A stretch of DNA of 43,437 nucleotides from IMG/VR virus record IMGVR_UViG_2563366824_000005, positions 1-43,437 of that record; one strand, written 5' to 3'. Shown in pieces: positions 12,500-39,069 of the stretch. The notes beneath the pieces are model-generated. The model made no database searches and was not told the origin of the DNA. It saw only the letters and a list, made by a program, of their open reading frames with translations. Source of the stretch: a virus (Duplodnaviria; Heunggongvirae; Uroviricota; Caudoviricetes). How positions within the stretch are numbered: the first letter of the stretch is position 1; each line of letters opens with the position of its first letter. The translations under genes were made by a program, and so were the position numbers.

Positions 12500-14131
<1,632 letters not shown>

Positions 14132-28762: not shown

Positions 28763-28796
28763 GGAGTTTACTCACATCTGACAAAATCAATATAAA

Positions 28797-28818
28797 CAGC
28801 CCCTCCGGAGAGGGGCTG
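28797..28818. terminator. strong 9-bp GC hairpin (CAGCCCCTC-CGGA-GAGGGGCTG)
   Basis: perfect inverted repeat; U-rich tract on the minus-strand side only. Confidence 0.45.
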
Positions 28819-29209
28819 GAGAGTGGCGCTATGTGCCATTGCATGGTGCCGGGTGCCTCCCGGTGAATTCAGTACCAGCACCTGAATCCGCGATTATCCC
28901 ATATACCTACTCGCTGATTGCCCCTCCGCACAGGGGGATTCACCATGCCAGTTTCTTTTAACAAACTCCCCGCAAACCAGACAACAGTCAACCGCCTGAA
29001 TTGTGAAGTATTTAAAAATTTCTCCCGCTAACTGATACCCGGCTAACAGTCTGGCGTTTTCTTTTTCAGCAACGGGAAAGCAACAACCACCACACCCGCC
29101 ACCAGCACACCGTCAGCCAGCACTGACATTATCCGGCTGCTGCAATGCCATTCACAAAAACAGTAAGCAATCACTTTTTACCGTAACAGGTGATAATCCA
29201 GATATGTAT

Positions 29210-29673: not shown

Positions 29674-29750
29674 TGGCGCGCTGTACTGGATTCGAACCAG
29701 TGACCGATTGCTTAGAAGGCAATTGCTCTGTCCGGCTGAGCTAACAACGC
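29674..29750 (-). tRNA. tRNA-Arg (anticodon UCU)
   Basis: 77-nt cloverleaf GCGTTGTTAGCTCAGCCGGACAGAGCAATTGCCTTCTAAGCAATCGGTCACTGGTTCGAATCCAGTACAGCGCGCCA with encoded CCA. Confidence 0.85.
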
Positions 29751-29856: not shown

Positions 29857-29932
29857 TGGTGGCCCTTGCTGGATTTGAACCAGCGACCTGGCGATTATGA
29901 GTCGCTCGCTCTCACCACTGAGCTAAAGGACC
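29857..29932 (-). tRNA. tRNA-Ile2 (anticodon CAU, ileX/ileZ-like; would be called tRNA-Met by anticodon alone)
   Basis: 76-nt cloverleaf GGTCCTTTAGCTCAGTGGTGAGAGCGAGCGACTCATAATCGCCAGGTCGCTGGTTCAAATCCAGCAAGGGCCACCA, resembles E. coli ileX. Confidence 0.8.
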
Positions 29933-32331: not shown

Positions 32332-32610
32332 TTACCTCCAGATGCGTTGCTGGAATGTGCGGGATGGACGCGGTGGGCGTTCGGAGTAAGGCAATCTGAC
32401 TGAGATTATCCAGTGACGGTAGTCGAGGCTAAGGGCTTTTTTAACCTCGTATCCGCGCCTGCGGTAACACTGAATTATCCATTCAGCCTGCTCTTCAGTG
32501 CATGGTGGATGCTGGAACCAGTCCGATTTGAATGCATGAAAACGCCGTCCGCATCTGCTGGCAAAGACGGCAGAATCATCAGAATTGTGTAATTTGGTAT
32601 CGTGCGCCAT
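32332..32610 (-). CDS. Rem-like small protein
   Basis: 92 aa from first ATG (MAHDTKLHNSDDSAVF...); track ORF starts at an upstream TTG; position matches rem in Qin. Confidence 0.45.
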   Translation of the reverse strand: MAHDTKLHNSDDSAVFASRCGRRFHAFKSDWFQHPPCTEEQAEWIIQCYRRRGYEVKKALSLDYRHWIISVRLPYSERPPRPSRTFQQRIWR

Positions 32611-33068
32611 CGGTTGTCTCTGCTGGCGCAGCAGGTGCCAGTTGTTCAGGCTGGCGTATAAAGTATAAATAAACTGGTTCCAGTGTAAAGCCCCTACATT
32701 AATGGAATAAAAGTCAAACAACAGATTGTTGGGATAAACACAACGCTTATTATTAAAAGCGATTAGATAAATTAAATTTTAATGTTATGCAATTTTACCA
32801 GATCATCATAACATCTCGTTTGAAACCACCGAAACAACAACCATATCAATATTGATTATGTTAAAGTGAGTAAATATGGAAAACAACAAATCTGCACATT
32901 ACGCTCCTTTTTTATCTGTGATACTTTTTGTTTTATGCTGTGTGTGGGCATTATTTTTATAAAAATATTCACAGATAAAATAAACCCGCCGAAGCGGGTT
33001 AAGTGCGGGTGCATTGAGGATGCCTGACACATCAGAGGTGGCGAGGGATTTCTCCCTCGCCGGGTCTC

Positions 33069-33224
33069 TTACTCCTCAGGTTCGTAAACTGTGAAGACAG
33101 CGACCTCCGTCTGGCCGGTTCGGATTCGTACCTCGCAGAGGTCTTTCCTCGTTACCAGTGCCGTCACTATGACGGTTAAACAGATGACGATCAGGGCGAT
33201 TAACATCGCCTTTTGCTGCTTCAT
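33069..33224 (-). CDS. hokD: Hok-family type I toxin (HokD/RelF-like)
   Basis: 51 aa MKQQKAMLIALIVICLTVIVTALVTRKDLCEVRIRTGQTEVAVFTAYEPEE; AAGGAG SD; below track length cut-off. Confidence 0.85.
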   Translation of the reverse strand: MKQQKAMLIALIVICLTVIVTALVTRKDLCEVRIRTGQTEVAVFTVYEPEE

Positions 33225-33481
33225 AGCCTGCTTCTCCTTGACCTTTCGGTCCGTAAGAGGCTAATCTCTATGTGTCGCATAGATATGGCCTCAGATTAAT
33301 GTTAAACGTCTTGCAGGACGCGTAATGTTACCTGGGGCTTTTCTCTATCTGCCGTTGGTGTTCATGCCCGAGGCAGATAGCCTCAAGCACCCGCAGTCAT
33401 TCTACTTAACTAAGATTTCCCCGCAAACCGTTTTTGTCCAGCACAATAAATATCCAACTAAACCAATGGAGTTCGCTGTAT

Positions 33482-33661
33482 TTACCGCCAGTATTCAATG
33501 CACATGACCGCCATGAACACCCCTAAAAAAAGGGCATTTATATATCCAAATATTAATATCAAAACATCAACTTTTTCCATATACCTTGCTGTGAAGATGA
33601 TGGGCATACATGATACGAACAACCAGAACGCAACAAACAAAAACTGCAATGCGTTTTTCAT
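33482..33661 (-). CDS. hypothetical small two-helix membrane protein (59 aa)
   Basis: strong AGGAGG SD 4 nt before ATG 33661; two hydrophobic helices; AT-rich context. Confidence 0.4.
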   Translation of the reverse strand: MKNALQFLFVAFWLFVSCMPIIFTARYMEKVDVLILIFGYINALFLGVFMAVMCIEYWR

Positions 33662-34199
33662 TATTCCTCCTACAATCAATGTGCAATTACATTTAAACAC
33701 ACCTCAATTTGGCCGGACATATAAATATCTAAACTAGAAAAAATCACTTACATAGCGTTACAAACTCTTTAGTCTAAAGGTTCATCGTAAAACATTCCCC
33801 ATACTTATCAGTCCGTTCCGCGCCAGGTAGCTTATTGCCTTATCTGGCAACCTATAATCAGGTTTCCGCTTTTTCAGTTGGCTGGTCGTTTAACCGACAT
33901 AGTTAACCCATTAATCTAGTTGCCGGATGTTGGTGGATTTTCGCGTTTTAGTTGTTCATAAAAGTGCACAGCTTTAACCAGTTCTTCTGATGTAACCAGG
34001 GCTGGTGAGGCAGTGAATAAGGCCTGAATTTGATAGTTCGGCCTGTCGTTACAATCCTCTTTTTTCGGTACATATTTCCAGTCAACAGACCACTACTTCT
34101 CCTGAAAGTCCGTAACGCCTTTTTTCACGTAGCGATATCGCCATGCCACTGGTTTTGCTTGCCCCGCCGTTTCATACCCTTCCTGATAATTAATCTCGC

Positions 34200-34376
34200 T
34201 CATTCATCGCCCCACTCATCACAATATGCTTCGACCGGATTTTTTCCTGCTTCATAATCATCACGCCATGCTTCAGCATCAGCAGCACTGCCACCACGTA
34301 ACTCTGCATAGTCCATTAACAGTTCATGCCATTTTTCAAAACTGACGTTGTATTTAGTTGAACCAAAATCAGCCAT
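34200..34376 (-). CDS. hypothetical acidic small protein (58 aa)
   Basis: MADFGSTKYNVSFEKWHELLMDYAELRGG...; start overlaps stop of upstream acidic ORF (AATGGCTGA); below track cut-off. Confidence 0.4.
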   Translation of the reverse strand: MADFGSTKYNVSFEKWHELLMDYAELRGGSAADAEAWRDDYEAGKNPVEAYCDEWGDE

Positions 34377-34551
34377 TTTGCTCTTCCTCTTCGTCTTTTA
34401 TTTCGTGATATGAGTAATTGCAGTAGTTAAAGAAAATATCTTTTGCTTCGTCATGTATTTCATCAGGCGTCGCATCAGCATCCACTTCGAATTCATCCTC
34501 GAAATCTCCACCAGCCATTCCCGTTTCAATAATTATTTTGAACTTTCGCAT
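34369..34551 (-). CDS. hypothetical highly acidic small protein (60 aa)
   Basis: track ORF; about one third Asp/Glu (FEDEFEVDADATPDEIHDE...KDEEEEQNG). Confidence 0.45.
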   Translation of the reverse strand: MRKFKIIIETGMAGGDFEDEFEVDADATPDEIHDEAKDIFFNYCNYSYHEIKDEEEEQNG

Positions 34552-34644
34552 TTCACTACCGCCCTTTCGGGTGGCCTCCTGCTGTTCTGAGGGTGCAGAA
34601 ATCCCTCCGGTTAAGGATTAAATTTTTAACAGTGCTAAATTTAA

Positions 34645-34960
34645 TTATTCAGTTTTGGATTTTGTCACCCTGCGTATCCGCGCTTTCCCGTTACGCTCAA
34701 TCTGAATTAGCTTTTCTATATTTTTTCGCCTTTCCCGTTCCTCCTGGCGCAAGAGCCTTACATCATCTGCCAGTCTGGTTTCTCTTTTCGCCACAGAGAG
34801 CATCCAGTCAAATGGCTCCACAACTGCACCGCAGATTTTACAGCGGACCTGACGCTCTTTTTCGTCAACCCGGACAGAAGCGTGATGGCAATATGGTCTT
34901 TCCGATGGCTCATAAAGAAAATTAACCTGATTACGAGGGTCATCCTCTTTTATCGGAAAT
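34645..34960 (-). pseudogene. zinc-ribbon-like ORF lacking a canonical start codon (possible frameshifted gene)
   Basis: open frame ...PYCHHASVRVDEKERQVRCKICGAVVEPFDW... ending at TAA 34645-34647, with no in-frame ATG/GTG/TTG near its 5' end; ATG-initiated 61-aa ORF 34758-34943 is in another frame. Confidence 0.25.
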
Positions 34961-35058: not shown

Positions 35059-35481
35059 TCACAGTACCGCCTCCTGAAAATTACCCTGATAGAAAGCCAG
35101 TACACGCTGCATAGCTTCGCTCTTCCGGCACTCGCGACAGATTATATTCAGGCGCCTGTCGTAGCGGCGTATTTCTCCGTCTGGTAATGACCAGATTAGG
35201 TCCGGATCAACCGCAGATGGTTTCTTCGGCTTTGCCCTTGAGAGCTTTTTACGGGCATTTTGCCAGTCCTTACGCGCCTGTTCAGACGGGAATAACCCGT
35301 AACCAGAGTTGTATACATCGCCACTGGCAACCAGCTCTCTGGCCAGAACGCTCATCAGATATCTTGTTGCCCCAGTTTTAGTTTCCAGTTGTCGTAACGT
35401 CTCGCGCCCACTCTGGCGTACGAGTTCAACAACCTGCCCTTTAATTTTTTCCCGCTCTTCTTGTGTAAAAACTTTTGCCAC
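35059..35481 (-). CDS. hypothetical protein (140 aa), possibly DNA-binding, immediately downstream of replication gene
   Basis: track ORF; basic C-terminal half with CRECRK motif; occupies the lambda P position but is not P-like. Confidence 0.45.
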   Translation of the reverse strand: MAKVFTQEEREKIKGQVVELVRQSGRETLRQLETKTGATRYLMSVLARELVASGDVYNSGYGLFPSEQARKDWQNARKKLSRAKPKKPSAVDPDLIWSLPDGEIRRYDRRLNIICRECRKSEAMQRVLAFYQGNFQEAVL

Positions 35482-35521: not shown

Positions 35522-36598
35522 TTACCCCCTGAAGCCCGGCGGAATTTCGTTATCCGGTTCAGAAATATGATTCACACAACGCTGGTTGTTCGTGCCGCTT
35601 ACCGGGAGCAACCAGGGGTTCTCAAAATTCCGGTCCGGTCCAAAAAACGTCGTCGCTCGCTGAACAAATTCCGTTCCCGTTTTCCCGGTAGCCGCCAAGT
35701 ATCTTGCGTAACGCCTCACGCCATCCAGCATGGCCTCTGGTGGCACCCCCTCGCGTAATCTGGCCTTCCAGGCACTGAAAGCGGATTTCTTCGGGTTTGC
35801 TCCGGCACGCAACGGGTACTCCCGCCAGACCTGTTCGAACACATCCGGATAATCCACTCGTCCCACAGACTGCCCGGTGTTTTCCGGGACTACCCGATCG
35901 GCTTCCCGCTGAATGGCGGAATCGGCTTCGGGCTGCTGCAGTTGGTGTGATGGCTCCGGCCTTGCGGTCATCACCTGCTGCACAGCGCCCGAATCGGCTT
36001 TCAGCGCATACGCTGAATCGGCTTCCGGTGTCGTGCCTGCTGGCTGACCAAGATTGACGGTCTGAACATCCCCTGCCTGGTTCGTGGCGTTTTTTACGCC
36101 ATGGACCATAGTGTTTTGATCTTCTTGATCTGTATCTTTATCTGTATCTTTATCTGTCGTGACTCGTCGTGACATGTGCGTGACATTTCGTGACGCGCCG
36201 TGACAATCGCCATTTTGTTCCCGCTTTCTTTCCCTCTCTCGCTGCGCCCTCTTGCGCTCTGCAGGAGATTTTGCGGTTTGCGAAATATTGCCGTTGTCCT
36301 CTTTAAGCACCTGGCGTTTTTCCCATCCAGTGATTAAATCACCATCAAGTACCCGCCCCTGCATCGTCTGCAAAATTGAATCAATTACCTCTTCTGTCAC
36401 GTCGAGCGCACTTGCCAAATCTTCTGTCGTGACATCAATGTGACCTCGCGTGACATTTCGTGACGCGCTCACCAGGAGGTGGATATACACTGCCATCACT
36501 GTTGCAATTGGCTGCCCTGACACCCTGGCAATTGTTCGCCACTTAGGGTCATTTGGCATGTCATGCCATAATCTGAGCCAGGCGTTAGCCATACTCAC
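35522..36598 (-). CDS. putative replication initiation protein (lambda O analogue) carrying internal iterons
   Basis: 358 aa; N-terminal region resembles phage replisome-organiser/DUF1376-type domains (from memory); linker encoded by iteron repeats; position after cII-like gene. Confidence 0.6.
   Translation of the reverse strand: MSMANAWLRLWHDMPNDPKWRTIARVSGQPIATVMAVYIHLLVSASRNVTRGHIDVTTEDLASALDVTEEVIDSILQTMQGRVLDGDLITGWEKRQVLKEDNGNISQTAKSPAERKRAQRERERKREQNGDCHGASRNVTHMSRRVTTDKDTDKDTDQEDQNTMVHGVKNATNQAGDVQTVNLGQPAGTTPEADSAYALKADSGAVQQVMTARPEPSHQLQQPEADSAIQREADRVVPENTGQSVGRVDYPDVFEQVWREYPLRAGANPKKSAFSAWKARLREGVPPEAMLDGVRRYARYLAATGKTGTEFVQRATTFFGPDRNFENPWLLPVSGTNNQRCVNHISEPDNEIPPGFRG
36128..36204. 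repeat. candidate origin iterons: five direct CGTGAC repeats at 10-11 bp spacing plus 12-bp tandem tctgtatcttta x2
   Basis: CGTGAC at 36158, 36168, 36179, 36189, 36199; tandem units at 36128-36151. Confidence 0.55.
36406..36464. repeat. second iteron-like cluster (CGTGAC/GTCACG repeats)
   Basis: GTCACG at 36406, CGTGAC at 36428, 36449, 36459, GTGAC at 36440; segment cgtgacatttcgtgacgcgc duplicated from the first cluster. Confidence 0.45.
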
Positions 36599-39011: not shown

Positions 39012-39069
39012 TTTCTGGTGACGTTTGGCGGTATCAGTTTTACTCCGTGACTGCTCTGCCGCCCTTTTT
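39012..39069 (+). ncRNA. dicF: DicF small regulatory RNA with its terminator
   Basis: TTTCTGGTGACGTTTGGCGGTATCAGTTTTACTCCGTGACTGCTCTGCCGCCC followed by TTTTT matches K-12 DicF as recalled. Confidence 0.8.

Follow-up and report, generated by a model that had tools for sequence, protein, structure and literature searches.

A probable small membrane-protein gene upstream of hok in a Qin/Rac-like prophage of Escherichia coli

Prophage setting and related systems

Members of the Hok/Gef group are small hydrophobic membrane peptides encoded by prophages. Hok has one helix, and most known type I toxins are shorter than 59 aa. In the Qin prophage of E. coli K-12, relBE lies directly upstream of hokD, within the order ydfU, rem-like gene, hok, slot and early genes. 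Very small, membrane-embedded proteins are also represented by the superinfection-exclusion protein Imm of phage T4 and by the lambdoid 'morons', which are AT-rich, fast-evolving and found in non-essential positions.

The DNA analysed here (43,437 nucleotides, hereafter the window) constitutes a lambdoid prophage of E. coli, similar to Qin and Rac, with its early-right operon on the minus strand (Table 1). On the same strand, a 59-codon ORF (ATG at 33661-33659, TAA at 33484-33482) has the replication genes on one side and the Q antiterminator on the other. Since this gene order is common to the window and to K-12 Qin, the 'nin region' label applied by the earlier note was a reasonable one. The ORF and relBE of K-12 Qin occupy the same slot, but gene content is wholly different; the likeness is positional only. 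No copy of the family described below was found near hokD in K-12 Qin, nor at the right end of K-12 Rac. Over the compared stretches of 32700-34700, strain WP8-S18-ESBL-07 was 99.95-100% identical to the window; its DUF968 (ydfU-like) gene is broken by the IS21-family element ISEc62, while that of the window is intact.

The 59-codon ORF is followed directly by a hok/sok type I toxin-antitoxin locus in complete form (33069-33392, minus strand), which the earlier note did not mention. This ordinary locus provides the small RNA and the toxic membrane peptide of the neighbourhood. The TAGAAT hexamer of its putative promoter is located 6 nt ahead of the first base of the hok leader. Homology to hok cassettes devoid of the ORF (e.g. 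that of vB_EcoM-606R7) ends at 33435, which corresponds to the putative -35 of hok. A second AT-rich gap separates hok from the next gene (32722-33068, with 28-33% GC around 32700-32999); no convincing ORF was found in it, and it holds a terminator-like hairpin.

Table 1. Features of the window and of related loci (window coordinates unless a locus is named)
Feature	Position	Strand	Evidence or remark
isrC	13567-13689	minus	Rfam gathering-score match, 150 bits
STnc100	28788-28977	minus	Rfam gathering-score match, 132 bits
Two tRNA genes	29677-29750; 29860-29932	both minus	Rfam gathering-score matches
DUF968/YdfU gene, intact, 349 aa	31281-32330	minus	Downstream of the 129-aa ORF
129-aa ORF	32332-32721	minus	Downstream of hok
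Terminator-like hairpin after hok	32983-33000	minus	Consensus scan
hok (hokD-type) toxin gene, 51 aa	33069-33224	minus	Pfam HOK_GEF, 2.6e-22, 78.6 bits; HokD in PGAP
hok mRNA leader and sok antisense region	33222-33392	minus	Rfam RF01794, 100.8 bits, E = 8e-22
Putative hok promoter	33399-33435	minus	TAGAAT at 33404-33399, weak -35; sequence reading
59-aa ORF, copy A of a two-member family, MKNALQFLFVAFWLFVSCMPIIFTARYMEKVDVLILIFGYINALFLGVFMAVMCIEYWR	33482-33661	minus	ORF calling, hydropathy, AlphaFold2, paralogue
79-aa mechanically called ORF	33498-33737	plus	Antisense to real gene
T7 homopolymer, codons 44-46 of the 59-aa ORF	33525-33531	minus	55-aa frameshift alleles diverge here
Leader, 123 nt, 32% GC	33662-33784	minus	Sole truly intergenic part; conserved with the ORF
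Shine-Dalgarno AGGAGG, 4-nt spacer to ATG	33666-33671	minus	Sequence; AGGGGG in some haplotypes
Pseudogene of a phrog_660-type early gene	33785-34203	minus	phrog_660 homology; lesions against intact 171-aa homologue
4-nt deletion	near 33885	minus	Against L092
Second in-frame TAG (CAG in intact homologue), just past the 90-nt deletion junction	33919-33921	minus	Against L092
90-nt deletion	33940/33939	minus	Against L092
75-aa mechanically called ORF	34030-34257	plus	Antisense to real gene
In-frame TAG for codon 37 (CCG, Pro) of intact homologue	34093-34095	minus	Against L092
phrog_519 gene	34200-34376	minus	Early-right operon
DUF7167 gene	34369-34551	minus	Early-right operon
DUF977 gene	35059-35481	minus	Early-right operon
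Replication protein gene	35522-36598	minus	Early-right operon
DicF	39013-39064	plus	Rfam gathering-score match, 77 bits
Copy B and hok 3' remnant, unannotated	L212 4001-4300; L213 7201-7500		Between ttcA and uspF, E. coli chromosome
'Hornerin'/hypothetical protein, antisense frame of the 59-aa ORF	L002 3282-3533; L003 3281-3532	plus	Deposited phage annotations
86-aa 'hypothetical protein', spurious-looking annotation	L002 3669-3926	minus	Frameshift product of the phrog_660 pseudogene

The 59-codon frame and its paralogue

The product of the ORF, named 'putative membrane protein' in some sources, has a GRAVY value of 1.31 and two hydrophobic segments in its hydropathy profile. AlphaFold2, run on the single sequence, placed helices at residues 3-24 and 31-58 (mean pLDDT 84). 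The small two-helix membrane protein of the earlier note was thus retained, with coding further backed by a diverged paralogue, and the AGGAGG Shine-Dalgarno sequence that it reported was found in place (Table 1). No match to the protein was obtained in Pfam, PHROG, NCBIfam or PADLOC, nor was any paper retrieved by a full-text literature search with its peptide strings. Likewise, nothing in BFVD resembled the model at E<=0.001 in Foldseek, a comparison for which a helical hairpin is uninformative.

When 1.84 billion representative proteins were searched exhaustively with HMMER, one diverged relative emerged (E = 3.7e-9), hereafter copy B as opposed to copy A of the window. The homology search proposed by the earlier note therefore led to a diverged 59-aa paralogue and to no known family. 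Copy B (MRKILMYLCISIWIVISCVPIILTSEYLTEASIMALMFGHANALCIGVFISIIYIECWR) is also 59 aa long and is 41% identical to copy A in a gapless alignment with 24 invariant positions. Profiles run against metagenome contigs and 5.8 billion proteins returned lineages A and B only, with no third one, and no family homologue was found beyond E. coli and Shigella in protein and metagenome-contig searches; close copies of A (at least 91% identical) were likewise confined to these two. One further 'homologue' from contig data (locus L088, 53% identical) was rejected, being the same DNA with many indels that are probably assembly errors. The ORF module was also met at 98% identity in NZ_CP069920.1, a 9.5-kb record labelled as a Klebsiella oxytoca plasmid, and could be there as a piece of phage or through contamination.

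Conservation of the small ORF, to which the earlier note had attached importance, was well documented within the species. Copy A was found in 1585 of the 5426 complete E. coli genomes (about one third) as well as in induced phages, its module being carried by PhiR42_1 and vB_EcoS-640R1. Copy B was recorded in 1045 of the 5426 (about one fifth), always as a single copy; its carriers include ST131 and other strains that are presumably of phylogroup B2. PGAP annotates neither copy in the RefSeq and GenBank records examined.

Between ttcA and uspF, copy B forms part of a prophage remnant and has integrase, DUF1627 and ABC-permease pseudogenes on its flanks. At 55 nt downstream of it, 66 nt of hok survive and match the 3' half of that gene at 80% identity (E = 5e-13); deletion has removed the promoter, leader and 5' half of hok from this locus but left the ORF open. 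As a hok remnant also follows copy B, the pairing of ORF and hok is ancestral. In one of these loci (L212), cdtB and cdtC occur about 1.4 kb from copy B.

The two copies share 59% of their nucleotides, and no similarity was detectable in the DNA upstream of the two ORFs. Identity by codon position amounted to 58, 73 and 47% (position 2 versus 3, Fisher p = 0.008), and pN was 0.33 versus a pS of 0.71 (synonymous versus nonsynonymous sites, Fisher p = 8e-5). The corresponding dN/dS was about 0.21, a rough value since dS is saturated. In neutral simulations with a substitution number matched to that between A and B, the frame stayed open in only 3-8% of cases. Because A and B differ as coding sequence does, with third positions least conserved and dN/dS around 0.2, the ORF was treated as a coding gene, and these comparisons are good evidence that the frame has long been maintained as a protein. 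The 79-aa frame antisense to it was rejected as a gene, since it has no Shine-Dalgarno sequence and is absent in B.

Length alone is weak evidence, since an ATG-initiated ORF of at least 59 codons appeared in 7.5% of shuffles of the 360-nt module. It is the consensus Shine-Dalgarno sequence and the comparison with the paralogue that lift the ORF above chance. The shuffle frequency would nevertheless suit a frame that is nonfunctional today, i.e. a relic or a chance frame that defective prophages transmit as a passenger of the hok cassette, as would the lack of PGAP annotation and the confinement of the family to one species. Several database alleles also encode 55-aa variants ending in ...FFRGVHGGHVH, whose frameshift at the T7 run may stem from true slippage or from an error in sequencing; an interruption was seen in at least one allele. 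Such a relic is quite unlikely, given the consensus Shine-Dalgarno sequence at proper distance, the codon periodicity and synonymous excess relative to the paralogue, and the presence of the module in inducible phages. Moreover, about 99% of the loci sampled had an intact frame (among some 100 IMG/VR loci, the exceptions numbered one or two), whereas the neighbouring upstream gene was full of lesions and broken in many ways. The ORF is probably a functional small membrane-protein gene and would represent an unnamed, species-restricted family.

A type I membrane-damaging toxin, that is, a second Hok-like killer silenced by an antisense RNA or by mRNA structure, was also considered and appears distinctly unlikely. 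Like Hok/Gef, the protein is a small and very hydrophobic prophage membrane peptide; it has a strong Shine-Dalgarno sequence, and its AT-rich segment adjoins a bona fide type I system to which it is linked both physically and ancestrally. Yet the two show no sequence relationship, as the 59-aa protein matched neither PF01848 (HOK_GEF) nor any other toxin family, and with 59 aa and two modelled helices it is larger than the 51-aa, single-helix Hok next door. Unlike hok, the ORF displayed no mok/sok-like leader, antisense RNA or structured mRNA detectable with Rfam or by folding: no Rfam match (E<=5) and no promoter-like site on the opposite strand were found over the ORF, although an RNA of an undescribed kind might escape such searches, and the mRNA folded no better than shuffles, which gives no sign that the Shine-Dalgarno sequence is sequestered. 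Copy B, furthermore, stayed intact without a recognisable partner after its hok had been destroyed.

DNA adjoining the ORF

The interval 33700-34200 had been described in the earlier note as an AT-rich stretch without any ORF of at least 60 aa, of a kind that often holds silenced cargo, promoters or small RNAs. Its composition proved only mildly AT-rich (42.7% GC versus 51.3% in the window, around the 12th percentile of 500-nt windows); the truly AT-rich part lies elsewhere, at 33436-33795, and consists of the ORF and its leader (35% GC, 1.7th percentile). Strictly speaking, ORFs of 79 and 75 aa overlap the interval, although both are antisense to real genes, so that the absence of ORFs holds only in this restricted sense. 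Nor is the stretch empty, since stops and indels mark the greater part of it as a disrupted gene, with its stop codon at about 33785.

This pseudogene was recognised through phrog_660, which the read-through translation of 33922-34203 matched with E = 3e-25. In the identical sequence of strain WP8-S18-ESBL-07, PGAP likewise annotates a pseudogene ('frameshifted; internal stop', window coordinates 33782-34203). An intact version of 171 aa was found in 18 of about 100 IMG/VR loci, and others carried a 328-aa relative with the same C-terminus; both relatives display a common ...NGLIS..VLR end. Lesions were defined by codon-for-codon alignment with the intact 171-aa gene of locus L092. Although the window copy is homologous to phrog_660, its two stops and its deletions of 90 and 4 nt leave it unable to make the protein. 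Other strains showed different lesions, such as a 1-nt indel in the A run at 34126 and a 43-nt deletion (33869-33911). Ahead of the module extending from 33436 to about 33795, the C-terminal end of the upstream gene was conserved in every case, however different the body of that gene.

Searches for regulatory elements were mostly negative. Rfam gave no match in the stretch even at E<=5, barring the edge of the hok leader. Folding revealed no structure beyond chance in 33662-34203 or in the small-ORF mRNA (minimum free energy -94.9 versus -93.6 kcal/mol in shuffles, z = -0.23). The consensus scan detected no gene-strand promoter in 33400-33800, weak promoters being apt to escape it, and no terminator other than the hairpin just past hok. 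The promoters and small RNAs expected by the earlier note were thus not recovered in what is mostly a pseudogene.

The 'ORF-free' DNA is a decayed early gene together with a 123-nt leader, rather than a regulatory island. That 33700-34200 should be a regulatory or silenced island with a promoter or small RNA, the small ORF being its cargo, is highly improbable. The ORF and leader are indeed the most AT-rich 360 nt nearby, and this composition would fit H-NS binding. However, 33785-34203 aligns codon for codon to an intact gene with defined lesions, neither an RNA family, a structure signal nor a gene-strand consensus promoter was found, and the stretch varies between strains by large indels, unlike a conserved RNA. 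Judged from the sequence, the 59-codon ORF probably encodes a small helical hairpin of the inner membrane and travels as cargo upstream of hok, the adjoining DNA being a decayed gene plus leader.

Present-day variation and possible role

Polymorphism was surveyed in 107 IMG/VR loci; as these were fetched by a flanking DNA pattern, the sample is unbiased as to the ORF. Copy A displayed 11 substitutions in the ORF, all nonsynonymous, and a single locus of the 107 carried a 1-nt deletion (frameshift) in the T7 run. Metagenome loci added Y57C, bringing copy A to 12 nonsynonymous substitutions. Copy B contributed V6M, S11N, A31V and I33R, again without any synonymous change. Together, the two copies showed 16 nonsynonymous and 0 synonymous polymorphisms (neutral P about 0.007, for a small sample uncorrected for phylogeny), a ratio that differs from the 47:25 of A-B divergence (p = 0.004). 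Polymorphism density in the ORF was only slightly below that of its flanks.

Present-day variation of A and B therefore gave no sign of purifying selection, and the 0 out of 16 synonymous changes also speak for the nonfunctional relic weighed above. The excess may be due to a loosening of constraint as the prophages decay, together with chance, or else to diversifying selection. Under the latter, the two copies would define a new family of fast-evolving 59-aa, two-helix phage membrane proteins, ancestrally coupled to hok, with a role in phage-phage or phage-host conflict at the inner membrane (superinfection exclusion or modulation of Hok action, for example) and overlooked by RefSeq in E. coli genomes in the thousands, ST131 included. 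Such a role is unlikely on present figures. The protein appears to resemble Imm and moron-type proteins in size, membrane embedding, AT-richness, fast evolution and position, although no sequence or fold match was found. As in a moron, its base composition differs from that of the flanking phage genes (35% GC versus 51% in the window). In contrast, the consensus scan assigned it neither a promoter nor a terminator, which places the ORF outside the classical moron definition.

Under the preferred reading, i.e. a genuine inner-membrane hairpin gene, lineage A would fill the cargo slot immediately upstream of hok/sok in Qin/Rac-like lambdoid prophages, and lineage B would be a fossil of the ORF-hok arrangement in the ttcA-uspF prophage remnant. 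Since neither promoter nor terminator was found for it, the gene would most likely be transcribed within the phage early-right operon, and it would be translated from its strong Shine-Dalgarno sequence. Among the positions at which A and B agree are W13, S17, C18, P20 and T24 in helix 1 and G39, N42, A43 and G47 in helix 2, those of helix 2 forming a G-xxx-A-xxx-G face. Because S17, C18, P20 and T24, and likewise G39, N42, A43 and G47, are small or polar and share one face of their helix, we infer that the protein may act by tight helix packing in the membrane, either through self-association or by binding a host or phage membrane protein. It would resemble an accessory or conflict protein more than an enzyme, as far as sequence allows such a reading. 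A holin was rejected, since the protein ends in ...CIEYWR without a charged tail and its neighbours are hok and early genes instead of lysis genes.

Overall, the region is prophage cargo of an ordinary kind and includes one small protein of modest interest. The importance of the result is modest: the small membrane proteins of E. coli that lack annotation gain a well-supported candidate, and the comparison points to the slot upstream of hok in Qin/Rac-like prophages as a cargo position. If the excess of amino-acid-changing polymorphisms holds across all genomes, the protein would make a reasonable target for phage-exclusion or toxicity assays. Two spurious phage annotations can also be corrected. 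The 85/86-aa 'hypothetical protein' of vB_EcoS-640R1 is a frameshifted fragment of the phrog_660 pseudogene, and the 'hornerin' label found in two phage records designates the antisense frame of the 59-aa ORF and looks spurious.
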